DNA from: Candidatus Velthaea sp.
GTDB lineage: Bacteria > Vulcanimicrobiota > Vulcanimicrobiia > Vulcanimicrobiales > Vulcanimicrobiaceae
Direction: 5' to 3'
Assembly: GCA_050012475.1 (NCBI GenBank)
Contig: JBEKHC010000067.1
Location: 1-28,319, forward strand
Length of the DNA stretch: 28,319 nucleotides
Within the stretch, counting starts at the first letter, position 1. The number at the start of each line of letters is the position of its first letter. This document shows positions 1,928 to 18,843 of this stretch, piece by piece. The position numbers and the translations under genes were made by a program. Under the pieces are notes generated by a model. The model searched no databases, was not told the DNA's origin, and was given only the letters and a program-made list of their open reading frames with translations.

Positions 1928-2962
1928 CTACGCGCTCACCGCGGCAGCCGCTTCGCATTCCGCCGTATAACCGCCCCGCGAGGCCAGCGAATTCATGCGC
2001 GCCCGATGCACCAGCAACGCTTGCGCTGCCGGGATCTCGGCTGCATTTCCACGCCACCGCTCGAGCGCCGGCTGCTGCAGCGCGCGGCCGTACGAGAACG
2101 TGACCGGCCACGGCTTTCGAAAGGTCACGTCGCGGTTCATTGCATCGAGGTGCGCGCTCGCGGACTCGTTGCTCTGACCACCGGACAAAAAGGCGATGCC
2201 CGCAACGGCCGGCGGCACGGTTTCGGTGAGCACGCGCAGCGTATGCCGCGCGACCTCGGCGATGCTCGACGCCGCCGGTGCGCTTGCGCCCGCGATGACC
2301 ATGCTCGGCTTGAGCACGACCGCCTCGAGCGCAACGTCTTGTTCGGCAAGTTCGGTGAACACGCGGCTGAGCACGCCGATCGTCGCGTTCGCCGACTGCT
2401 CGATCGAATGACTTCCATCCATCAACAATTCGGGCTCGACGATCGGAACCAAGCCGCCGGCCTGACAAATCGCCGCGTAACGCGCGAGCGCATGGGCGTT
2501 GGCGGCGATCGCTTTCGCCGAGGGCAACGCGCGTCCGATCGTAAACACCGCACGCCACTTCGCAAAACGAGCTCCCATGCGAACGTACTCGTCGATCCGG
2601 CGGCGCAGCCCGTCGATTCCTTCGGTAATTTTCTCGCCGTCGGTTCCGGAGAGCGTCACGGTGCCGGTATCGACTTTAATTCCGGGCAAGATTCCGTAAG
2701 CGTTCATGACTTCGACGAACGGCTGTCCCTTGGCGTCGCTCTGCCGGATGGTTTCATCGTACAAAATCGCGCCGCTGATATATTGCAGCAGACCGGGCGC
2801 GGTCAGCAGCAGCTCGCGGTACGAGCGGCGCATCTGCTCGGTTGGCGGAATGCCGAGTTTCTCGAAGCGCGCGTTGCAGGTGCCGTTGCTTTCGTCGATC
2901 GCCAAGATGCCCTTGCCTTCGGCGACCATCGCGCGCGCGGTTTCTTTGAGAAAATCGATCAT
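1928..2962 (-). CDS. fba: Fructose-bisphosphate aldolase, class I (Schiff-base, eukaryote-like family)
   Basis: Motifs GKGILAIDES, FAKWRAV, VPIVEPE, LKPSMV (Schiff-base Lys), FLSGGQ, TFSYGRALQ. ATG at 2962 overlaps the glpX stop (ATGA). Confidence 0.95.
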   Translation of the reverse strand: MIDFLKETARAMVAEGKGILAIDESNGTCNARFEKLGIPPTEQMRRSYRELLLTAPGLLQYISGAILYDETIRQSDAKGQPFVEVMNAYGILPGIKVDTGTVTLSGTDGEKITEGIDGLRRRIDEYVRMGARFAKWRAVFTIGRALPSAKAIAANAHALARYAAICQAGGLVPIVEPELLMDGSHSIEQSANATIGVLSRVFTELAEQDVALEAVVLKPSMVIAGASAPAASSIAEVARHTLRVLTETVPPAVAGIAFLSGGQSNESASAHLDAMNRDVTFRKPWPVTFSYGRALQQPALERWRGNAAEIPAAQALLVHRARMNSLASRGGYTAECEAAAAVSA

Positions 2963-3981
2963 GTTTGGACCTCGGACGCCTGTCCTTCGAGCGACGCCAG
3001 CGTTGACAGGCGCGGCGTGAACATGTAGGTGGCATCGGAGGTTCGCACCGTGCCCGTGTAGGTCGAGATGACGATCGACTGCGTGTACGCAGCGCCGTGG
3101 TCGAATCGCACCCCCGCCAGCAACTCGCCGTCGGTGACGCCCGTTGCGGCCAGCAGCGCGTCGTCGGCGGCGCACAAGTCGTCCAGCAGCAGGGTTTTGG
3201 CCGGATCGATGCCTTCGTGGACGGCGTAGGTGGCCTCTTCGGCGTTGCGCAGCCAAAGCCGGCCCTGCATGTCGCCGCCGAGTGCTTTGACCGCACACGC
3301 CGTCACCACGCCTTCGGGCGCTCCGCCGATGCCGGCCATCATATCGATGCGGCTGCGGTCCGTTAGCACGGCAATGATCGCCGTGGCAACGTCGCCGTCG
3401 TTGAACAACCGGATGCGCGCGCCGGTTTCGCGCACTTCGCGAACCAGATGCTCGTTGCGCGGCCGATCGAGCAGGGCGACGGTGATCTCGCTGATCGGGC
3501 GGCGCATCTCGGCGGCCAGCGCGCGAACGTTTTCCCGCAGCGGGCGATCGATCGAGATTTTGCCGCGGCCCGCCGGCCCGACCACGATCTTGTCCATGTA
3601 CGCGATGCGGGTGTGGAACAGCGTGCCGCGCCGCGCGGCAGCTACGACAGAAATCGCACCTGCGCCGCCGCGCGATGCGAGAGTCGTTCCGTCGATGGGG
3701 TCGACGGCGATGTCGACCGACGGGCCGTCACCGGTGCCCAGCGTCTCGCCGATGTACAGCATCGGCGCTTCATCCTTTTCGCCCTCGCCGATAACGACCA
3801 CGCCGTCGACGTCGACGGTGCCGAGCACGTTACGCATCGCGTCGACCGCGGCTTGATCGACCCCATTTTTGTCGCCGCGCCCAACCATGCGCGCGGAGGC
3901 GATGGCGGCGGCTTCCGTCGCCCGGACGAACTCGAACTCGATGCGCGAATCCGATTTGACTTTCTTCAAACGCTCGATCAT
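2959..3981 (-). CDS. glpX: Class II fructose-1,6-/sedoheptulose-1,7-bisphosphatase (GlpX family)
   Basis: Motifs RATEAAAI, GRGDKN..DQAAVDAMR, IGEGEKDEAPMLYIGE, VDPIDGT, GIGGAPEGV, ATGVTDG. ATGA overlap with prk. Confidence 0.96.
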   Translation of the reverse strand: MIERLKKVKSDSRIEFEFVRATEAAAIASARMVGRGDKNGVDQAAVDAMRNVLGTVDVDGVVVIGEGEKDEAPMLYIGETLGTGDGPSVDIAVDPIDGTTLASRGGAGAISVVAAARRGTLFHTRIAYMDKIVVGPAGRGKISIDRPLRENVRALAAEMRRPISEITVALLDRPRNEHLVREVRETGARIRLFNDGDVATAIIAVLTDRSRIDMMAGIGGAPEGVVTACAVKALGGDMQGRLWLRNAEEATYAVHEGIDPAKTLLLDDLCAADDALLAATGVTDGELLAGVRFDHGAAYTQSIVISTYTGTVRTSDATYMFTPRLSTLASLEGQASEVQT

Positions 3982-4916
3982 GCGACGGCTCCTTCTGCTT
4001 CGAGTAATGCGTTTTCGATCAAGACCACGCGGCGCGCAATCAGTAATTGCGCGAGCGCGAGCGAGTGACTCACTTGAACTCCTTTGGCTCCGGTAAATTC
4101 GCCCAGCCGTTCGGGGCGCAGATGAATATGAGAATCCATGTGCGCCCAGATCTTATCCTGCACGGCATCGGCAACGTCGCCGGCTATTTGTCCGTCGAGT
4201 TCGATGATCGTCTCGGGATGACCGTGCTCGCCGGTCGTGTCGAGCTGGCGCAAATAGGTGGAGGTGCTGGCAAATTCACGATAGTCCAGCGCGACAAAGC
4301 GGCCGCCTTTGCGAATTTGGGCGGTAAGATGCGCGTCGTCGGGATGCGTCGACCAGGTGGCGGGGCGGCTGAAGCGGACCGTCAGATCCGCATGTTTGGC
4401 TTGAGGTGTGATGTGCGCACGAATATCCGGCTGCCGCTTTTCGATCTCGGCGCGGACTTGTTCGGGGCTGTAGCCGCGCTGGGTCACGTCGCGCTGAATC
4501 TTCCATGCTACCTTGAGTTCGGTTTCGGGATCCAGCCAAACGGTTACGTCGAAGAGATTGCGCAGCGCTCGGGTATAGAGCGGAAACAGGCCCTGGACGA
4601 CGATGATCTCCTTGGGCGCGATCGTTTCGGGCCCTTTGATGCGGCCGTCGGCGTGATCGTACACGGGCTTGCGGATCGGCTGACCGTCGCGCAGCGTCCA
4701 CATGTCTTCTTCCATGGCGGCGAAATTGTTGGCGCGCGGGTCGAGCGCGGTAAAGCCGACCGCTTTACGCTGCTCGCGGTCCAGCGAGTGGTAATCGTCG
4801 AGACAGATCGTTTCGATCCGCTCGGCACCGAAGATTTTGTCCAGTCCACGGCACAGCGTTGTTTTGCCGGTTCCGGAGTCGCCTCCCACGGCGATCATGA
4901 TAGGCCGACGGGCCAT
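3978..4916 (-). CDS. prk: Phosphoribulokinase (class II, cyanobacterial/plant-like sequence type)
   Basis: Walker A GDSGTGKT, ICLDDYHSLDREQRK..G.TALDPRANNF, KPVYDH, WKIQRD..RG. GGGGAGG RBS before the ATG at 4916. CBB gene context. Confidence 0.92.
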   Translation of the reverse strand: MARRPIMIAVGGDSGTGKTTLCRGLDKIFGAERIETICLDDYHSLDREQRKAVGFTALDPRANNFAAMEEDMWTLRDGQPIRKPVYDHADGRIKGPETIAPKEIIVVQGLFPLYTRALRNLFDVTVWLDPETELKVAWKIQRDVTQRGYSPEQVRAEIEKRQPDIRAHITPQAKHADLTVRFSRPATWSTHPDDAHLTAQIRKGGRFVALDYREFASTSTYLRQLDTTGEHGHPETIIELDGQIAGDVADAVQDKIWAHMDSHIHLRPERLGEFTGAKGVQVSHSLALAQLLIARRVVLIENALLEAEGAVA

Positions 4917-4945: not shown

Positions 4946-4974
4946 ACGCTACTGCCGCAGCGTGCTGCCGTCAC
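4946..4974 (-). promoter_or_regulatory. Putative sigma70-type promoter of the prk-glpX-fba operon
   Basis: Minus strand GTGACG (4974-4969), 17 nt spacer, TAGCGT (4951-4946), about 30 nt upstream of the prk start. Confidence 0.5.
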
Positions 4975-4984
4975 GATCGGACAC

Positions 4985-5015
4985 GTAAAACGCCGGTTTT
5001 GCCTCGCGAAATGCA
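4985..5015 (-). promoter_or_regulatory. Putative LytTR response-regulator binding site (imperfect direct repeat)
   Basis: Minus strand TGCATTTCGC-N11-GGCGTTTTAC, ending 10 nt upstream of the predicted -35. Each half matches the E. coli YpdB motif GGCATTTCAT at 7/10, with the same 11-nt spacer. Confidence 0.55.
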
Positions 5016-5236: not shown

Positions 5237-7189
5237 GTGAACGGGGCGCAACGCTGGCTCCTCGTTCGCTGGGCGGCGATTTGTCTCGTGCTCGCGGCAC
5301 CTTTCGCCATCGGAGCCGGCGCACGGATTGGGGGCAGGAACGCCGCGATCGCGACCATCGCGGCCGAGCGCAGCGGATTGGACTGCGCCTTGAGCGCCGG
5401 CGACGTGCTGGCTGCCGTCGAGCGCTACCGGTTGAACGCGCTTACCTTACCGAACGGCTCGAGCGAGTCGCTCCGCGCCGACACCGATGCCGTTCGAAGG
5501 GCGCTGCGCGAGCTTCGCGCTCCGAGCTGCGCGCCGCTCGTGAAGGGGCCGCGCACCAATCTCGCCGCCCTCGAAGCCGGCGAGCGCGCGATGACCACAC
5601 GCGGTGACGCCGAAACGCGGGCGCAGGCATCACTGCCGCTTGCCAACGCGATCTTGGCGCTGCTGTCCGACATCGGCGACGGATCGGGGCTCAATTACGA
5701 TCCCACCGTCGAATCAGTGAATTTACAGGATGCCCTGTTGGCCCGGATCCTCGTGGGGACCGAGCGTCTGCAGCAGGGCGCGCAGATGCTCGAACTCGCC
5801 GGACGCCGTCAGGAGCTTCCCCTGCCTGAAGTCGTCGAGGTCGAGAAACTTTCCGGCGAGGCGCACGCGAACAACGTCATGGCGAACGACGATTTCGACG
5901 GAGCGCTCTTCGTGCTGCCGGCGCTGAGCTCGACGTTGAACCCCGCCCGCGTGGAAGCCGACCGCACCGAAGCCGCGCTGGCCGCCGCGATCGACCGCAC
6001 GGTGGCGGGAACCGACGGCGCGCACGAAGCCGATTTGAGCGCGCTGCGCCGCGCATCCATTGCCGGCGGTCAGCATCTCATGCAGACCTCGGCACGCGTT
6101 CTCGAAACGGCGTTCGAAGCTCGCGTCGCGGCGCTGCACCAAGGTCAACGAATCGTTGCCGGCGCCGGCGCGGCGCTCATCGCCGGCGTCTGGGGACTGG
6201 CAGCATGGTTCTGGCAAGCCTTGCGCCGCAAGCACCGGGCCGAACTCGAGCGGATGCGCGAACGGGCGAAAATTCTCGAAACCGAACTCGCGCGCGGCAA
6301 CGCCGAACGCGCACTGCGGATGACCGAACAGCAGTTCCGTGCCGTCTTCGACGGCTCGGATGTGGGCATCGCGATCGTCGACTGCGGCGACCGCATCGAT
6401 GCCAACGCCGCTTTGCGCTCGATGTTCGAGGGCGACCTGGAACTCGTCACCGCGAAATGCGCCGAAATGTTCCGCGAAGTCATCGGCGAGCGGCGCGATT
6501 CGCTGCGCGCCGAGCACTGCTTCGAGAAGTCCAACGGCGAGCAACTCTGGGCCGAGCTGAGCCTTTTGGCCGTGCGCGGCGGAACCGAGGATGTCGTTTC
6601 GGCGGTCGTGCTCGTCCACGACGTCACCGAACACAAGATGCTCAACGCACGGCTCGATCACGAGACCTTGCATGACGCGCTGACCGGATTGCCCAACCGC
6701 GTGAAGTTCATTCGCCGCCTGAGTTCCCTGATGGGCAAAGCGGAAGGCTTCGCCGTCGTGTTCGTCGACCTCGACGGCTTCAAGGCGGTAAACGACACGC
6801 TCGGGCACCACGCCGGCGACGGCGTCCTGCGCATGGCCGCCTATCGTTTATCGTCCGCGGTCCGGCCGGTCGATCTCGTCGCCCGTCTGCACGGTGACGA
6901 ATTTGCCGTGATCATCCGCGACATCTCATTCGACCACGACAGCGAAGAGATCGAAGACATCGTCGGCCGCTTGCGTGACGCGCTCGCCTTCTCGATCGAC
7001 ACGCCGACGGCGCCGTTGCGGATCTCGGCAAGCATCGGTTACGTTCGCGACGCGGCATCCTATCGCGACGCCGAACAGCTGTTGCGCGACGCCGACAGCG
7101 CAATGTACCACTCCAAGCTCACCGGCCGCGATCGCGCGACCGCCTACGAGCCGGCAATGGCCCCGAAAATCGCCAGCCTGCGGCCTTAG
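5237..7189 (+). CDS. Membrane-anchored sensor/PAS/GGDEF-domain protein (diguanylate cyclase-like, variant HGDEF motif)
   Basis: N-terminal hydrophobic segment, extracytoplasmic helical region (SGLNYDP...NLQDAL), second TM (IVAGAGAALIAGVWGLAAWFW), coiled coil and PAS-like segment (FRAVFD...DVTEHK). GGDEF domain: HDALTGLPNR, DLDGFKAVNDTLGHHAGD, RPVD, RLHGDEF, ADSAMY. Start TTG 5231 or GTG 5237. Confidence 0.9.
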   Translation: MNGAQRWLLVRWAAICLVLAAPFAIGAGARIGGRNAAIATIAAERSGLDCALSAGDVLAAVERYRLNALTLPNGSSESLRADTDAVRRALRELRAPSCAPLVKGPRTNLAALEAGERAMTTRGDAETRAQASLPLANAILALLSDIGDGSGLNYDPTVESVNLQDALLARILVGTERLQQGAQMLELAGRRQELPLPEVVEVEKLSGEAHANNVMANDDFDGALFVLPALSSTLNPARVEADRTEAALAAAIDRTVAGTDGAHEADLSALRRASIAGGQHLMQTSARVLETAFEARVAALHQGQRIVAGAGAALIAGVWGLAAWFWQALRRKHRAELERMRERAKILETELARGNAERALRMTEQQFRAVFDGSDVGIAIVDCGDRIDANAALRSMFEGDLELVTAKCAEMFREVIGERRDSLRAEHCFEKSNGEQLWAELSLLAVRGGTEDVVSAVVLVHDVTEHKMLNARLDHETLHDALTGLPNRVKFIRRLSSLMGKAEGFAVVFVDLDGFKAVNDTLGHHAGDGVLRMAAYRLSSAVRPVDLVARLHGDEFAVIIRDISFDHDSEEIEDIVGRLRDALAFSIDTPTAPLRISASIGYVRDAASYRDAEQLLRDADSAMYHSKLTGRDRATAYEPAMAPKIASLRP

Positions 7190-7199
7190 GGACGAATCC

Positions 7200-7925
7200 T
7201 CAGAGGCCGAACGCTTTGCGCACGGCGGGCATGAAGCCGCGGCTGACGGGCGCTTCGCTCCGGCGCCGGTCGTCGAGCCGCAGCACGTACGTGCCGCCGA
7301 AGAACGGCTCGATTTCGATGACGTGCTCGGGATTGACCAAATAGCTGCGATGCACGCGCAGGAAGCCCAGCGGCTCGAGCCGCGCCGCGCATTCGGCGAG
7401 CGAGCCCCGGTAGCGCAATTCCCGGTCGGTGAGCGTTGCCAGCACGACGTGGCCGTTCGCATGCACCATGAAAATCTCGTTGATGCGCACGAGCATCCGG
7501 CGGTCATCGTCCTCGAGCGGGAGCCGGACGGCGCTGGGCGCGGCCGCTTTCACCGGTGAGGCCGGACTATGCGCGCCGCGCAGCCGGGCGATCGTGACGG
7601 CGAGCCGTTCTTCGTTGACCGGCTTGACGACGTAGTCGAGGGCACCCAACTCGAACGCCCGCAGCGCGTGCTCGTCGAACGCGGTGACGAAGACGACTTG
7701 CGGGCGATGCGGTAAGCTGTTGATCACCGTCATCGCCTCGATCCCGTTCATCCCGGGTAAACCGATGTCCAGGAACACCACGTCGAACGGATCGGCGGCC
7801 AGCGTCGCCAGCGCCGTGGCCGCCGTCGCCGCTTCGACGATGGTGAAATCCTCGGCGACGCGCCCGAGCGCGTAGACGAGTTCGCTGCGAACCAGCGGTT
7901 CGTCGTCGACGACGAGCGCCTTCAC
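7200..7925 (-). CDS. LytTR-family DNA-binding response regulator (LytT/YpdB/AlgR-like)
   Basis: REC domain (ALVVDDEP, VFLDIGLPGMNG, FVTAFDEHALRAFE.GALDYVVKP) plus LytTR domain (FLRVHRSYLVN, PVSR). GTG start overlaps the kinase stop (GTGA). Confidence 0.95.
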   Translation of the reverse strand: MKALVVDDEPLVRSELVYALGRVAEDFTIVEAATAATALATLAADPFDVVFLDIGLPGMNGIEAMTVINSLPHRPQVVFVTAFDEHALRAFELGALDYVVKPVNEERLAVTIARLRGAHSPASPVKAAAPSAVRLPLEDDDRRMLVRINEIFMVHANGHVVLATLTDRELRYRGSLAECAARLEPLGFLRVHRSYLVNPEHVIEIEPFFGGTYVLRLDDRRRSEAPVSRGFMPAVRKAFGL

Positions 7926-9040
7926 GCTTCGATCTGGCTCTTGGGGCGTCGCAGCGGCACCCAGAACGCGACCGTCGTGCCGGTGCCTTCGGTGCTGGCG
8001 ATCTGCAGGCCCGACCGCGGACCGTAGGCTCCGATCAGCCGCTGATGGACGTTGTTGAGGCCCAGGCCTAGCCCCGCTCCGAACCCGCGCTCGAGCACGG
8101 TGTGCACGCGGTCGGCGGCGATCCCGATACCGTCGTCGACGATCGAAATTTCGATGCCCGTATAGCGGAACCGCGCACGGATGCGAATCGAGCCGTGGTC
8201 GCGCGAACCAATCCCGTGCGCGATCGCATTTTCGACCAGCGGTTGGATCGAAAGAACCGGCACGAGCGCCAGCCGCGAGCGCGCGTCGACCTCGAAGGCG
8301 ACCCGCAAGTTCGATCCGAAGCGCGCGTGCTCGAAACGCAAATAACGTTCGACGTTTTCGAGTTCTTCGTCGAGCGTGACGAATTCGCCGTGACGGGCAA
8401 GCGTTTCGCGAAAATACTCCGCGAAGTCGACGAGCAGATCGTGGGCGCGCGTCGGATCGGTGCGGGTCAATGCCGCGATCGTCGTCAGCGTGTTGAAGAG
8501 AAAGTGCGGCGAGATCTGCGCGCGCAGCGCTTCGAGTTCGGCCTGGGTGACGAGCGCCGCGCGCGCGTCGAGTTCGGCGATCTCCAAATACACGCTGAAG
8601 ACGCGCGCCAGCCCGATCGCCACGCGCGCGTCGCGCTCTTCCATGTCGCGGCCCGCGCGATACATCTTGAGCGCGCCCACGACGTGGCCCCGGACGACGA
8701 ACGGCGCAACGGTGACCGCGGTGAGCGGACAATTGCGAAACGGGCAGCCGATGTCTTCGGGATTCGAGGTCGTATAAGGCCGGCCCGAAGCCAGGGTGCG
8801 CCGGGTGACGTCGGTGAGGTTCGGTTTGCCTTCCAGATGATGATCGCTACCGGCGCCGACGAACGCCAGGACCCCATCCGTCGCCGACACGACCGCAGCC
8901 GCGTCGAGGCCCAAGTTCTCGTATACCAGCCGGGCCGTGAACTGGGCCGACTCCGCCCGCAAGCCGCCGCGCAGATGCGGCAGCGCTTCGACCAGCAAAT
9001 CGAGCACCGTTTGTTCGCGCCCGGGATAGTCTCGGATCAT
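7922..9040 (-). CDS. LytS/YehU-family sensor histidine kinase, soluble GAF-only form
   Basis: GAF region (LAFVGAGSDHH, IGCPFRNCPL, GALKMY), H-box ELEALRAQISPHFLFNTL, IQPLVENAIAHG, DDGIG, GLGLNNVHQRL. No transmembrane segments are apparent. Confidence 0.93.
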   Translation of the reverse strand: MIRDYPGREQTVLDLLVEALPHLRGGLRAESAQFTARLVYENLGLDAAAVVSATDGVLAFVGAGSDHHLEGKPNLTDVTRRTLASGRPYTTSNPEDIGCPFRNCPLTAVTVAPFVVRGHVVGALKMYRAGRDMEERDARVAIGLARVFSVYLEIAELDARAALVTQAELEALRAQISPHFLFNTLTTIAALTRTDPTRAHDLLVDFAEYFRETLARHGEFVTLDEELENVERYLRFEHARFGSNLRVAFEVDARSRLALVPVLSIQPLVENAIAHGIGSRDHGSIRIRARFRYTGIEISIVDDGIGIAADRVHTVLERGFGAGLGLGLNNVHQRLIGAYGPRSGLQIASTEGTGTTVAFWVPLRRPKSQIEA

Positions 9041-9915
9041 ACGGCGTGAAATGCTCCGTTGGCGATCACGTAGCGCAAGAAGCGCTGCGCGCCGCTCGGC
9101 AAATCGCGTTTGCGCCCGCCCACGAGGTGCCAGTCGCGCACCATCGGCGTGATCGGCGTCGGGATCTCATTCAACGTTCCGTCGGCGAGCTCGCGGGCGA
9201 CGGCGTCACGCGAAACGAGCGAGATACCCAAGCCGACGCGCACGCACTCGCGAATCGCACCGTTCGAGCCGATGGTGACGGCCGGCGGCGCGATCCCCAA
9301 TTCGGCAAACACCGTTTCGGTGGTCTCGCGGGTCCCTGAACCGGGCTCGCGCAACAGCCAGGTCGCACGGGCCAGATCCGCGATCGTATACGCCCGGTTG
9401 GGCGGCCCGACGACCACGACCGCGTTGGAACGGATGGCCAGCGTAACGAATTGCTCGTGCTGGGGCGGGCGCCCGGCCAGCACCAAGTCGGCCTCCCAAT
9501 GCGCGAGCCGGTCCCAGACCTGATCCTTGTTGGCAACCTCGAGATGCAGGTCGACCGGTTCGAGCTCGGCCTGAAAGCCGCTGAGCAGTTCGGGCAGGAG
9601 CTGCTCCGCCGCGGTCGGCACGGCCGCCAGCGACAGCCGGCGCGACGTGGGGTGGGCGGCGGCGCGGGCCTCGTCGACGGCCTCATCGAGCAGCGCGAAG
9701 ATTCGGCGACCGTACGTGGCCAGCCGTTCACCGGCCGCCGTCAGCCGCACCCCGCGGCCGTCGCGCTCGACGATGGGCGCCCCGACCTCTTTTTGCAGAC
9801 CCGCCAGCGCCGACGACACCGCCGGCTGCGAGATCACCAGCCGTTCCGCCGCGAGCCGAACTGAGCCGCGTTCGGCAACCTCGAGGAACGTGCGCACCTG
9901 GTTGAGGGACAACAT
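9037..9915 (-). CDS. cbbR: LysR-type regulator CbbR
   Basis: LysR HTH (LNQVRTFLEV...AAERL.ISQPAVS) and REPGSGTR motif typical of the CbbR/CysL group. Divergent from cbbL. Stop overlaps the kinase ATG (ATGA). Confidence 0.9.
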   Translation of the reverse strand: MLSLNQVRTFLEVAERGSVRLAAERLVISQPAVSSALAGLQKEVGAPIVERDGRGVRLTAAGERLATYGRRIFALLDEAVDEARAAAHPTSRRLSLAAVPTAAEQLLPELLSGFQAELEPVDLHLEVANKDQVWDRLAHWEADLVLAGRPPQHEQFVTLAIRSNAVVVVGPPNRAYTIADLARATWLLREPGSGTRETTETVFAELGIAPPAVTIGSNGAIRECVRVGLGISLVSRDAVARELADGTLNEIPTPITPMVRDWHLVGGRKRDLPSGAQRFLRYVIANGAFHAV

Positions 9916-9979
9916 AATCTGTAGGTTATGAATAAAAACAGAAAATGTATTTGACGTCAATAGATCGACGTGCAACGAT
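9913..9979. promoter_or_regulatory. cbbR/cbbL divergent control region with CbbR-type site and cbbL promoter
   Basis: AT-rich. Inverted repeat CATAA-N8-TTATG (9913-9930) fits the TNA-N7/8-TNA CbbR pattern. TTGACG (9951-9956) is followed 17 nt later by AACGAT (9974-9979) with an upstream TG. Confidence 0.65.
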
Positions 9980-9981
9980 GA

Positions 9982-11577
<1,596 letters not shown>

Positions 11578-11605
11578 AAAGGCGTTCCGGCTTTCGCCTC
11601 CACGC

Positions 11606-11630
11606 CCCCCATGCGCAGCGCGTATGGGGG
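11606..11630 (+). other. Intercistronic stem-loop between cbbL and cbbS
   Basis: CCCCCATGCGC-AGC-GCGTATGGGGG, an 11-bp stem with one G-U pair and no U-tract. Confidence 0.55.
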
Positions 11631-11692
11631 CTCCACGTACCGTTTCAAGCTGCGATTCTTCGCGGCGCCGCAATGTTTAGGAGTTTGACTGT

Positions 11693-12115
11693 ATGCGAGT
11701 AACGCAAGGAACGTTTTCTTATCTTCCCGATCTGACCGACGAGCAGATCGGGAAGCAAATCCAGTACGCGCTGGACAACAACTGGCCGATCTCGATCGAG
11801 TACACCCACGATCCGCACCCGCGCAACTCCTACTGGGAGATGTTCGGCTTGCCGATGTTCGATCTCAAAGACGCTGCGGCGATCATGGGCGAGGTCACCC
11901 GCGCGCGCACTGAGTACCCCGACTCCTACATCAAGGTCAACGCCTACGACGCCCGCTACGGCCGGCAGACCACGGCTTTGAGCTTCATCATCAACCGGCC
12001 GGCCAACGAGCCCGGTTTCCGACTCGAGCGCCAGAACGCCAACGATCGCGTTCAACGCTATACGATCAAGGCGTATGCGGTCGATGAGCCGCGGGAGACC
12101 CGCTACTCGACATGA
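11693..12115 (+). CDS. cbbS: RuBisCO small subunit, red-type
   Basis: [56 protein letters not shown], plus the red-type C-terminal extension [17 protein letters not shown]. Confidence 0.98.
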
Positions 12116-13014
12116 GTGCCGAACCCGAGCAAGAGACGCCGCTCGACATTTCGGCGGCCTACGCCGAATCGAACATCGGCGCGATCGTCGAACAGCTCGA
12201 TCGCGAGCTGATCGGCCTCGCGCCGGTCAAGAGCCGCATTCGCGAGATTGCGGCGCTCTTGCTCGTCGACCGCCTGCGCAAGCGCGTGGGCTTGGCGACC
12301 GAACCGCCGCCGCTGCACATGTCGTTCACCGGCGGTCCGGGAACCGGCAAAACCACCGTCGCGATGCGGATGGCCGAAATCCTCAAGAGCCTGGGTTACG
12401 TGCGCAAAGGCCATCTCGTGGCCGTTACCCGCGACGATCTGGTGGGCCAGTTCATCGGCCACACCGCACCCAAGACCAAAGAAGTCATCAAGCGCGCGAT
12501 GGGCGGCGTGCTGTTCATCGACGAAGCCTACTATCTTTACAAAGCCGAGAACGAGCGCGACTACGGCGGCGAAGCGATCGAGATTTTACTTCAGTCGATG
12601 GAGAACAATCGCGACGATCTCGTGGTGATCTTCGCGGGCTACAAAGATCGCATGGACAGCTTCTTCACCAGCAATCCGGGCCTCAAATCGCGCGTCGGCA
12701 ACCACATCGACTTTCCCGACTACTCACCCGAAGAGCTGATGCAGATCGCCGAACTCATGGTCGACAAACTCAGCTACCGCTTCACCGCCGAAGCCCGCGC
12801 GGCGTTCGAAGACTACCTCAAGCGCCGCATGGCGCAGCCGTTTTTCGCCAACGCGCGCAGCGTTCGCAACGCCATCGGGCGCACGCGCTTACGCCAAGCC
12901 AATCGGCTCTTTGCCCTGGGCGGCGTGCTGACCCGCGACGAACTCATGACCATCGAAGCCGAGGATATCCGCAAAAGCCGCGTCTTCGACGACGCGAACC
13001 CGCCACCGAAGTAG
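12112..13014 (+). CDS. cbbX: CbbX red-type RuBisCO activase (AAA+)
   Basis: [80 protein letters not shown] overlap with cbbS. Confidence 0.97.
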
Positions 13015-13194: not shown

Positions 13195-13902
13195 ATGCGT
13201 ATCGTTGGGCGGGTTACCGCCGTGTTTTTAGCTGTTCTGGCGGCTTGGATTCCGGTTGACGCGGGCGCCGACACGGTGTACGTGCCCGGACCGCGGATCG
13301 AGGTTCCGTCGTTGACGCCGCGGGCGTATGCCGCGATCGAAGCCCGCACGCGCGCAACGCATTTCGTGCGGAGCGATGACGGTCCGCGCTACGTCATCTA
13401 CGGCGCCAATGCAAAAACGCCACCGTTCCCCAGCGATCTCACGCCGGCGCGGGGCCGGGCGTACCTCGACACCTTCGCACGTGTCGCGCCGAGCATGAAC
13501 TGCCGAACCGACGACGTCGCCCACGCGTACGAATTCCTGCTGCAGGCGGCGCTATGGGCCTTCAACGGCACGCACTTCGAGCAATTCGCCCCCGGACCGA
13601 CGATCGCGTGCGGTGCGCGCTCGTTCGGCGCGGTCTCCCTGGACGATCGCGTTCACATTTTTTTGGGCGGGGCGCCCGGTTTCAGCCTGCTCTCCGACCG
13701 GGCAAAACGATCGCTGTACGAGACCCTCGTCGTCGTCGGTGGATACTTGCTCGACAACGTTGCCCGGGCCAAGCCGGGTTCGCCGGCAATGAGCAAGGCC
13801 AGAGCCGATGCGGCGGGTGTGGTGCGCTCACTCACCGGCTTTCGCGCCTCGCGCGTGCATCTCACGGCAGCGGGGGTCTCGATCGACGATCAAGCGCGCT
13901 GA
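13195..13902 (+). CDS. Secreted hypothetical protein, DUF6683-like
   Basis: Signal-peptide-like N-terminus (MRIVGRVTAVFLAVLAAWIPVDAGA). The segments DDVAHAY, LSDRAKRSLYETL and the C-terminal TGF..SRVHLTAAGV recall DUF6683 proteins (family call from memory). Confidence 0.65.
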   Translation: MRIVGRVTAVFLAVLAAWIPVDAGADTVYVPGPRIEVPSLTPRAYAAIEARTRATHFVRSDDGPRYVIYGANAKTPPFPSDLTPARGRAYLDTFARVAPSMNCRTDDVAHAYEFLLQAALWAFNGTHFEQFAPGPTIACGARSFGAVSLDDRVHIFLGGAPGFSLLSDRAKRSLYETLVVVGGYLLDNVARAKPGSPAMSKARADAAGVVRSLTGFRASRVHLTAAGVSIDDQAR

Positions 13903-14683: not shown

Positions 14684-18039
<3,356 letters not shown>

Positions 18040-18111: not shown

Positions 18112-18843
18112 ATGATGAAGCGAGTCAACGTTGCGGTTACACCAGCGGCGGTCGCCATTGGTTTGCGCGGATTCGTTGTCGTCGTCATCGACGTGCTGCG
18201 CGCAACGACGACGATTACGCGAGCACTCGAGAACGGTGCGCAGTCGGTTATCCCGTGCTTGGAACCCGAAGATGCGATCGCGGTGCGCAATCGCGTCGGC
18301 CGCGACCGGGTGCTGCTCGGCGGGGAGCGTGGGTCGCAGAAGATCAACGGCTTCGATCTCGACAACTCGCCGGCATCGTACGAATCGGCAACGATCGTGG
18401 GCAAGACGGTGGCGTTCACGACCACGAACGGCACGCGCGCCTTGCAGCGCGTGGGTCACGCCGGCGCCGCCGCTGTGCTCTGCGGCTCGCTCAACAATCG
18501 GGACGCGATCGTGACCGCCATCGCCGCGATCGATGCGAAAGAAGCCCTCTTGGTCTGCGCCGGACAAGACGGCGAATTTTCCTTCGAAGACTTCTTCTGC
18601 GCCGGAGCGATCGCCAACGAATGCAGCGAGCGCTTTCGGGACGTGGCGCTCAGCGACGCGGCGCTCGCGGCCGCGGTGACGTATCGTAACGGTGAGCACC
18701 GCATCGCCGACGCAATCGCGAGCGGCGAACATGCTCAGTCGCTGGGCGCGTTGGGTTTCGGCGAGGACATCATCGATGCGGCCCGGCTGGACATCAGCTC
18801 GGTGATCCCCATCTATCGCGACGGCGAAATCTTCCGCCTGTAG
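18112..18843 (+). CDS. comB: 2-phosphosulfolactate phosphatase (ComB) family protein
   Basis: VVVIDVLRATTTI..AL.NGA, LLGGERG..KI.GFDLDNSP, FTTTNGTRAL, VCAG..GEFSFEDFFCAGAI. Start is uncertain (18088-18115). Confidence 0.9.
   Translation: MMKRVNVAVTPAAVAIGLRGFVVVVIDVLRATTTITRALENGAQSVIPCLEPEDAIAVRNRVGRDRVLLGGERGSQKINGFDLDNSPASYESATIVGKTVAFTTTNGTRALQRVGHAGAAAVLCGSLNNRDAIVTAIAAIDAKEALLVCAGQDGEFSFEDFFCAGAIANECSERFRDVALSDAALAAAVTYRNGEHRIADAIASGEHAQSLGALGFGEDIIDAARLDISSVIPIYRDGEIFRL

Follow-up and report, generated by a model that had tools for sequence, protein, structure and literature searches.

A membrane-less LytS/LytTR pair next to cbbR and its predicted carbon-assimilation regulon in Candidatus Velthaea

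The cbbR-lytS-lytT chain and its proteins

We analysed a 28,319-nt stretch of DNA from Candidatus Velthaea sp. (contig JBEKHC010000067.1; hereafter the window), in which a LytS-type histidine kinase and its LytTR response regulator (the pair) lie between the RuBisCO operon and the Calvin-cycle genes prk, glpX and fba. Comparison across relatives in this group of soil bacteria points to a candidate LytT binding site, a direct repeat ahead of prk or fba and, in part of the clade, of the isocitrate lyase gene aceA. The features of the locus are:

9037..9915, reverse strand: cbbR, LysR-type regulator divergent from cbbL (292 aa; Pfam HTH_1 and LysR_substrate)
7922..9040, reverse strand: lytS, membrane-less LytS-type histidine kinase with GAF, DHp (His179) and HATPase domains (372 aa; Pfam)
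7200..7925, reverse strand: lytT, receiver (Asp53, Lys101) and LytTR DNA-binding domain (241 aa, GTG start; Pfam)
5237..7189, forward strand: PAS-GGDEF gene between lytT and the prk promoter (Pfam)
4983..5014, reverse strand: predicted LytT binding site, two 11-bp direct repeats (5014-5004 and 4993-4983) with a 21-bp period (by matrix score)
4946..4951, reverse strand: predicted -10 box (TAGCGT) of the prk promoter, 31 nt past the second repeat (by spacing)
3978..4916, reverse strand: prk, phosphoribulokinase, first gene of the predicted target operon (start 4916 placed from a GGAGG site; alternative 4898)
2959..3981, reverse strand: glpX, class II fructose-bisphosphatase (4-nt overlap with prk)
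1928..2962, reverse strand: fba, class I fructose-bisphosphate aldolase (4-nt overlap with glpX)
9913..9930, no strand assigned: CbbR-type palindrome CATAA-N8-TTATG covering the cbbR start codon, on the upstream side of the cbbL promoter; a putative CbbR binding site
10120..13014, forward strand: RuBisCO operon of cbbL (10120-11577), cbbS (11693-12115) and cbbX (12112-13014), predicted CbbR target without a LytT site

As the original prediction described, cbbR, lytS and lytT are chained by 4-nt start/stop overlaps at 9037-9040 (ATGA) and 7922-7925 (GTGA). The LysR-type protein scores 163 bits with the NCBIfam CbbR model, missing its cut-off of 450, and its gene is named cbbR here from its position and conserved divergence from cbbL. 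The PAS-GGDEF gene is likely a lineage-specific insertion, because prk directly trails lytT, within ~100-120 nt, in four relatives (G168, G377, G375, G399).

Pfam assigns to the kinase a GAF domain (33-147), His_kinase (PF06580) and HATPase_c, and to the regulator Response_reg and LytTR. The cytoplasmic GAF domain that precedes DHp in the LytS family is present, with a GAF fold match at Z 16.2 (root-mean-square deviation 2.7, 145 aligned residues), and the phospho-accepting His179 and the ATP-binding N/G-box residues N271, D302, G304 and G306 are conserved. The absence of N-terminal membrane helices, also part of the original prediction, was confirmed: the 5TM-5TMR_LYT membrane domain (PF07694) was found neither in the kinase nor in the 94%-complete genome, and the N-terminal extension is missing in 116/118 non-partial close homologues. 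Aligned with full-length LytS relatives, the kinase starts at the helix just past their membrane domain, and its top Kyte-Doolittle 19-mer is borderline (1.62 at residue 43) and falls in GAF beta-strands of the predicted structure, which consists of GAF, coiled coil, DHp and ATPase only (mean predicted local distance difference test score 89.6). A membrane sensor split off as a separate gene was considered and rejected, PF07694 not being found in the genome.

The Eremiobacterota kinases form their own clade (support 0.99) without a hydrophobic N-terminal segment. Short N-termini of this kind also occur in 17/120 non-partial distant representatives, some perhaps truncated, and by this comparison loss of the membrane part is not unique to the clade. 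The nearest named kinase records are from Eremiobacterota/Vulcanimicrobiota (71-87% identical), and an orthologue is recorded in the cultured Vulcanimicrobium alpinum (P0088, WPS_15780 in its source). A search of the window genome with lytS returned only lytS itself, and lytT holds the only LytTR domain found there. The regulator stays under the curated equivalog cut-offs (LytR, 154 of 375 bits; BtsR, 147 of 246 bits); its receiver residues Asp53 and Lys101 are invariant in 38 orthologues.

Distribution and gene order among relatives

We searched 401 genomes of the phylum (kinase threshold E<=1e-40); the assemblies are incomplete, kin are not independent, gene starts come from our own gene caller, and two unpublished genomes are included (G361, with a kinase orthologue, and G059, with a cbbL match). 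Kinase matches occurred in 47/401 genomes, comprising 44 orthologues of one family (58-87% identity, 11 genera, window genome included) and 3 distant proteins, and a form I cbbL match in 47/401. Pair and cbbL were found together in 17 genomes, 12 of which, from 8 genera, have the order cbbL< cbbR> lytS> lytT>; such recurrence argues that the arrangement is not due to chance. The block cbbR-lytS-lytT-prk lies ~17 kb away from cbbL in G027, and cbbL is on a different contig from the pair in G161, G224, G286 and G318. Where cbbR is directly upstream of lytS (13 loci), the spacing is -4 in 8, -1 in 1 and a gap of 16-22 nt in 4, so the overlap is not universal among relatives.

The synteny that the original prediction proposed to test was thus recovered in eight genera, but only 17 of the 44 pair-bearing genomes gave cbbL. 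That prediction had taken pairs usually unlinked to cbb genes as evidence against itself, and by gene count this is in part what was found: 27/44 pair-bearing genomes are without a cbbL match, and 30/47 cbbL genomes lack a kinase orthologue. Yet most pair-without-cbb cases look like loss of cbbLSX and cbbR from the same spot, with fba and the site left behind. Genus g25 has 30 orthologues and 5 cbbL matches among 33 genomes, and its pair mostly occupies one shared chromosomal position, flanked by a ComB-type phosphatase and a 2-hydroxyacid dehydrogenase. At this very spot one g25 genome (G240) retains the whole cbb block, and another genome (G252, L159:1409-1507) has a 32-codon cbbR scar directly before lytS, ~15 N-terminal joined to ~17 C-terminal codons. 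On these grounds the link between pair and cbbR looks ancestral in this clade, the pair outliving RuBisCO.

In scans of genome and metagenome contigs, 80 loci each, close orthologues numbered 3 and 0, and neither aceA, aceB nor cbbL stood beside the kinase in 157 distant loci screened, so the glyoxylate link found no confirmation beyond this phylum. In four metatranscriptome runs of one study, 11-18% of words were shared and contigs came mostly from relatives; among the contigs listed, one of 231 nt (33 differences) crosses the cbbR-lytS junction, which does not demonstrate a single transcript. By eye, a -10-like hexamer lies a few bases before the lytS start at six loci (L034, L187, L188, L189, L190, L186), which suggests that lytS in several relatives can have its own, nearly leaderless promoter.

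Further observations concern the neighbourhood. The ComB-type gene (2-phosphosulfolactate phosphatase family) lies at 18112-18843 (+) in the window, and in many relatives it directly follows cbbX or, where cbb was lost, still occupies that spot; its substrate may perhaps be a phosphorylated by-product such as 2-phosphoglycolate. Between cbbX and this gene the window holds a DUF6683-like gene (13195-13902) and a catalase-peroxidase (14684-16912, -) with a divergent OxyR-like regulator (17167-18039, +), none of which was seen at the corresponding spot in the relatives examined. A [NiFe]-hydrogenase adjoins the regulators elsewhere: cbbR runs into it in the pair-less G002 (L140:10955-12931) and lytT does in G001 (L032:7304-9190), and the pair lies behind hypF in G318 and G360 (L191, L192). 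L146 and L147 (G043, G046) have a PRK-containing frame of >700 aa between a LysR gene and cbbL, possibly a fusion or else an over-long call, and G003 has, besides a cbb locus orthologous to that of the window, a second form I RuBisCO (59% identical) with carboxysome-type genes (L150).

A direct repeat at prk, fba and aceA promoters

The predicted site was modelled as a matrix of two 11-mers at period 21 (consensus RC[CA][TG]TTC[GA]CGC), scored in leave-one-genus-out fashion against 100 dinucleotide shuffles each; 30 of 42 prk matches were fetched for their promoters. It was present in 23/23 promoters (17 prk, 6 fba) of pair-bearing genomes from 8 genera, with scores of 7.0-27.9 (p<=0.02). In contrast, it was found in 0/13 prk promoters of pair-less genomes (scores <=2.5; 0/12 without the unpublished G059). 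The window site scores 19.9 (p=0.01), and is the best of 43 intergenic matches (178 in the genome), but was a training site. A TAnnnT box follows the second repeat at 31 or 32 nt in 22/23 prk/fba promoters, the -35 being poor, and together the repeat, the fixed -10 spacing and the poor -35 have the layout of an activator site. Among 20 held-out loci, the site precedes fba in 8/8 that carry it; the other 12 have no fba there, several ending early. The site also stands ahead of prk genes far from the pair, among them one of a different PRK type in G161 and one in a moved cbb block in G224. A second prk paralogue (~52% identical), unlinked to cbb genes, was seen at L235, L236, L237, L239, L356 and genome contig C9:68156, and carries the repeat even in genomes without a form I cbbL match (G266, G277, G397).

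Paired direct repeats two helical turns apart and upstream of -35, found here computationally with binding only predicted, are also the arrangement of LytTR regulators. Passages of PMC11347149 give the RcoM1 repeat as TTCNNGCA and describe activators with paired repeats upstream of -35, and B. subtilis LytT uses two 13-nt boxes 8 nt apart (PMC5626966); the core TTC[GA]CGC and its position agree with these published sites.

The RuBisCO promoter appears to be wired differently. A LytT-type site was found in 0/16 cbbL promoters, and none at cbbL or cbbR among the 16 promoters scanned, while a CbbR-type box (ATAA-N8-TTAT, <=1 mismatch) is in 14/16 cbbL promoters vs 0/23 prk/fba promoters. LytT might nevertheless co-regulate cbbL with CbbR, by contacting it or through an undetected site, in the manner of RegA or CbbRRS in purple bacteria: cbb operons under two-component control are known (PMC8307300), and cbbR, lytS and lytT make one overlapping chain here and are adjacent in 13 genomes. 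We consider this improbable, since the best cbbL scores are 3.3 sense and 6.8 antisense, the same CbbR-type box stands in the pair-less G002, G033 and G011, and the pair persists where cbbR was lost at the spot, once with a deletion scar.

The site extends to aceA. With a matrix trained on prk/fba only, a call being a score >=7 with a -10 box, 21/29 aceA promoters of pair-bearing genomes had the site vs 0/25 of pair-less genomes. This depended on the period: 23/29 scored >=10 at 21 bp, and no other period between 15 and 28 gave more than 4. As 8/29 pair-bearing promoters are without site and -10 box, aceA is counted as a regulon member in only some of the clade. A fixed pattern searched genome-wide matched in 38/43 pair-bearing genomes (49 matches; reversed-pattern control 17) vs 5/43 others (6 matches; control 11). 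Of the 31 new matches, 13 are ahead of aceA, with 1 more probable aceA case where a contig ends; 8 are ahead of prk or fba, 3 ahead of PanE/ApbA-like genes and 1 ahead of a hydrogenase small subunit, and the remaining five are elsewhere, two of these within reading frames. Some promoters of this clade have triple repeats, including one ahead of isocitrate lyase and malate synthase (G371). In several relatives, G012 (L037), G021 (L039) and G006 (L010/L331), another type of LytS-like kinase, whose N-terminus is hydrophobic and which gave no GAF match, lies with a LytTR partner just behind aceA; the aceA promoters of G012 and G006 are without the repeat.

Two other kinds of target were considered and rejected. 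Hydrogenase is not a general one, the site preceding the small subunit only in G360 (10.8) and being absent before the hydrogenase behind lytT in G001. As for transporters, CstA was not found in 5/5 genomes; sodium:solute symporters are present in 5/5 genomes searched, those of the window genome not being among the listed site matches. No identified site directly precedes a transporter (an amino-acid permease follows fba or prk in g25; LrgAB and YhjX were not searched genome-wide). The original prediction had noted that the usual LytTR target genes are missing from the window, and none of cstA, actP, lrgAB and yhjX is among the 36 window open reading frames scanned.

Losses within g25 provide a control. 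A lytT match was missing in 7/44 g25 genomes; G222 still has lytS, where a contig ends, and we examined five of the remaining six. In G324 and G407 the pair is gone, its flanking genes are joined, and the site is absent at aceA (best 4.2 and -1.4). In G409 the search missed a frameshifted lytT copy, and the aceA site is present; in G346 lytT lies at the edge of a contig and aceA gave no match. Five further pair-bearing genomes gave 3 usable aceA promoters, two with site and -10 box and one (G411) scoring 28.4 with no -10 box at the expected distance.

Altogether, we put at roughly three in four the probability that LytS/LytT is a cytoplasmic carbon-status switch activating prk-glpX-fba and isocitrate lyase through the 21-bp-period repeat, with CbbR likely controlling RuBisCO separately. 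The basis is comparative genomics throughout: the domain layout, the lost membrane sensor, the gene order, the repeat, its fixed -10 distance and its co-occurrence with the pair can be read directly, and the switch itself is the prediction built on them.

Several points weigh against this reading. The repeat was first noticed by eye in printed prk/fba upstream DNA, and 18 of the 49 pattern matches are training sites. Thirty of the 44 pair-bearing genomes belong to one genus and are not independent, and G324 and G407 perhaps reflect a single deletion event. In the window genome itself, the second prk copy scores 6.6 with no -10 match, and the aceA site is weak (9.4, fifth of 24 matches in the scan for repeat plus -10). 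The aceA misses are G195, G399, G375, G251, G377, G021, G279 and G318, the last having the pair and no pattern match at all. Conversely, G296 (86% complete), the fifth of the g25 genomes examined for a missing lytT, has a strong aceA site, yet neither the pair nor its neighbour gene was found. Structural comparison of the GAF domain gave no ligand lead, Foldseek and VIA-align returning generic GAF matches only (phytochromes, fRMsr, PtsP, SpoVT).

One could alternatively suppose that another regulator of similar distribution binds the repeat, the pair being a passenger or having another target, since the site-pair link is a correlation among related genomes and G296 and G318 do not fit. This seems to us even less probable than co-regulation of cbbL: the repeat geometry is that of LytTR sites, lytT has the sole LytTR domain found in the window genome, the site is missing exactly where the pair was deleted within the genus, and where the pair adjoins different genes (G371, G251, G360) each of these genes carries the site.

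The proposed switch, its signal and known systems

In the proposed mechanism, the kinase would autophosphorylate on His179 and pass the phosphate to Asp53 of LytT, a transfer suggested by the conservation of both residues. Once phosphorylated, LytT would bind the two repeats head to tail and bring RNA polymerase to promoters whose -35 is poor. GAF, the sole remaining input domain, would bind a central metabolite, perhaps pyruvate or a related short 2-oxo acid holding the kinase off, so that the regulon would be on when the cell must make sugars from CO2 or C2 units, by ribulose-1,5-bisphosphate (RuBP) regeneration, gluconeogenesis and the glyoxylate shunt. Retention of the pair in genomes that lost cbbLSX, cbbR and prk likely reflects a continued dependence of fba and aceA on it.

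The original prediction had proposed a new layer in which a metabolite or redox sensor gates CO2 fixation together with CbbR. What stands is a soluble pair conserved beside cbbR, linked to the Calvin cycle and with no transporter target found. A partnership with CbbR at the RuBisCO promoter is not supported, the site sitting before prk/fba without a CbbR-type box and not before cbbL, and gating of CO2 fixation in particular is not borne out, the pair and cbbL often occurring apart and the site also lying at isocitrate lyase.

As to the signal, a pyruvate or related short 2-oxo acid ligand is the class we somewhat favour; pyruvate itself would be a guess, and a rather doubtful one. BtsS binds pyruvate within its membrane domain (PMC10653868), and because this domain is missing here, extracellular pyruvate sensing by the window kinase is unlikely and GAF is the only input left. 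B. subtilis LytST is retro-inhibited by intracellular pyruvate by an unknown route (PMC5626966), and the GAF domain of LytS kinases was proposed to take an unknown intracellular signal (PMC5552118). No solved LytS GAF structure was found by sequence. H67, H68 and C104 of GAF are invariant, and C99 at least 90% conserved, in 113 homologues, which, together with the G360 site before the [NiFe]-hydrogenase small subunit, would fit a regulon as proposed whose input is redox or metal through these residues, or comes from a separate membrane partner. We regard such an input as unlikely. The same residues recur in most of 116 distant, mainly membrane-bound relatives (H67 81, H68 92, C99 96, C104 96) and are thus no adaptation of the soluble form; the genome was searched for a separate 5TM-LYT gene and gave none, and most targets are carbon-routing enzymes. 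The redox sensing of the original prediction accordingly gained no specific support, this His-His/Cys-x4-Cys motif being common to membrane-bound LytS relatives. R24, T76, T79, K125 and Y127 are likewise shared with distant, mostly membrane-bound kinases, and the sharing of these motifs suggests that GAF reads the ordinary intracellular input of the LytS family, not a new one.

More tentatively, the GAF-only kinase could split Calvin-cycle control between two regulators and link RuBP regeneration with the glyoxylate shunt and, in one lineage, with hydrogen uptake, its ligand being the suspected intracellular input of all LytS kinases (e.g. pyruvate). If so, a soluble GAF-only kinase would let that input be identified directly, and with the predicted target promoter the question of the LytS GAF signal becomes directly testable. 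The pair would provide a first concrete regulatory circuit, with predicted site and regulon, for carbon fixation in Eremiobacterota, where a related cultured species has form IE RuBisCO and unexplained cbbL expression (PMC9758169). It would be a LytS/LytTR system controlling central-metabolism enzymes instead of a transporter, in a Calvin cycle whose carboxylation and regeneration halves obey different regulators. In line with the original prediction of an undescribed system at cbb loci, we found no paper on a Calvin-cycle link, site or regulon of the pair among the open-access papers searched, though supplements or databases may contain such a regulon prediction. What appears new is the Calvin-cycle link, repeat and regulon of a membrane-less LytS/LytTR pair, with strong comparative support for the predicted target.

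In function, the proposed switch resembles IclR and Cra/FruR of enterics, metabolite-sensing switches of the glyoxylate shunt and gluconeogenesis, which are unrelated one-component regulators. Its closer likeness is to BtsS/BtsR and YpdA/YpdB of E. coli and LytS/LytT of B. subtilis, with which it shares the GAF-DHp-CA part, the REC-LytTR regulator, paired repeats of 21-bp period and a very small regulon. It differs in that the window kinase is without the 5TM-LYT domain and hence the known pyruvate site, and in that targets there are transporters and here, by prediction, the enzyme genes prk, glpX, fba and aceA, with no cstA in 5/5 genomes. Actinobacterial LytS-type pairs (L201, L202) likewise have a kinase without the full membrane domain (37-40% identical) and a LytTR partner, but usually keep a short hydrophobic N-terminal segment, which the Eremiobacterota clade lacks, and an adjacent sodium:solute symporter gene. 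RegB/RegA and CbbRRS rely on a HisKA-type kinase and non-LytTR regulators, and RcoM1 on a heme-PAS sensor domain. RcoM1 and CoxC, the latter with an MHYT sensor domain, are LytTR regulators of CO oxidation that control lithoautotrophy-related operons through nearly the same repeat core (TTCNNGCA / TTNNNGCN), as passages of PMC11347149 describe, and the triple repeats in some promoters here add to the likeness; they are one-component CO sensors with LytTR fused to a gas-sensing domain, whereas here LytTR is fused to a receiver and paired with a kinase, with GAF input and carbon-assimilation targets. RegB/RegA and CbbRRS of purple bacteria also place a two-component layer atop CbbR for Calvin-cycle genes (PMC8307300). 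They belong to other families, however, and act on cbb operons together with CbbR, whereas here a PF06580 kinase and a LytTR regulator have no site at cbbL, and the two regulators appear to have separate promoters.

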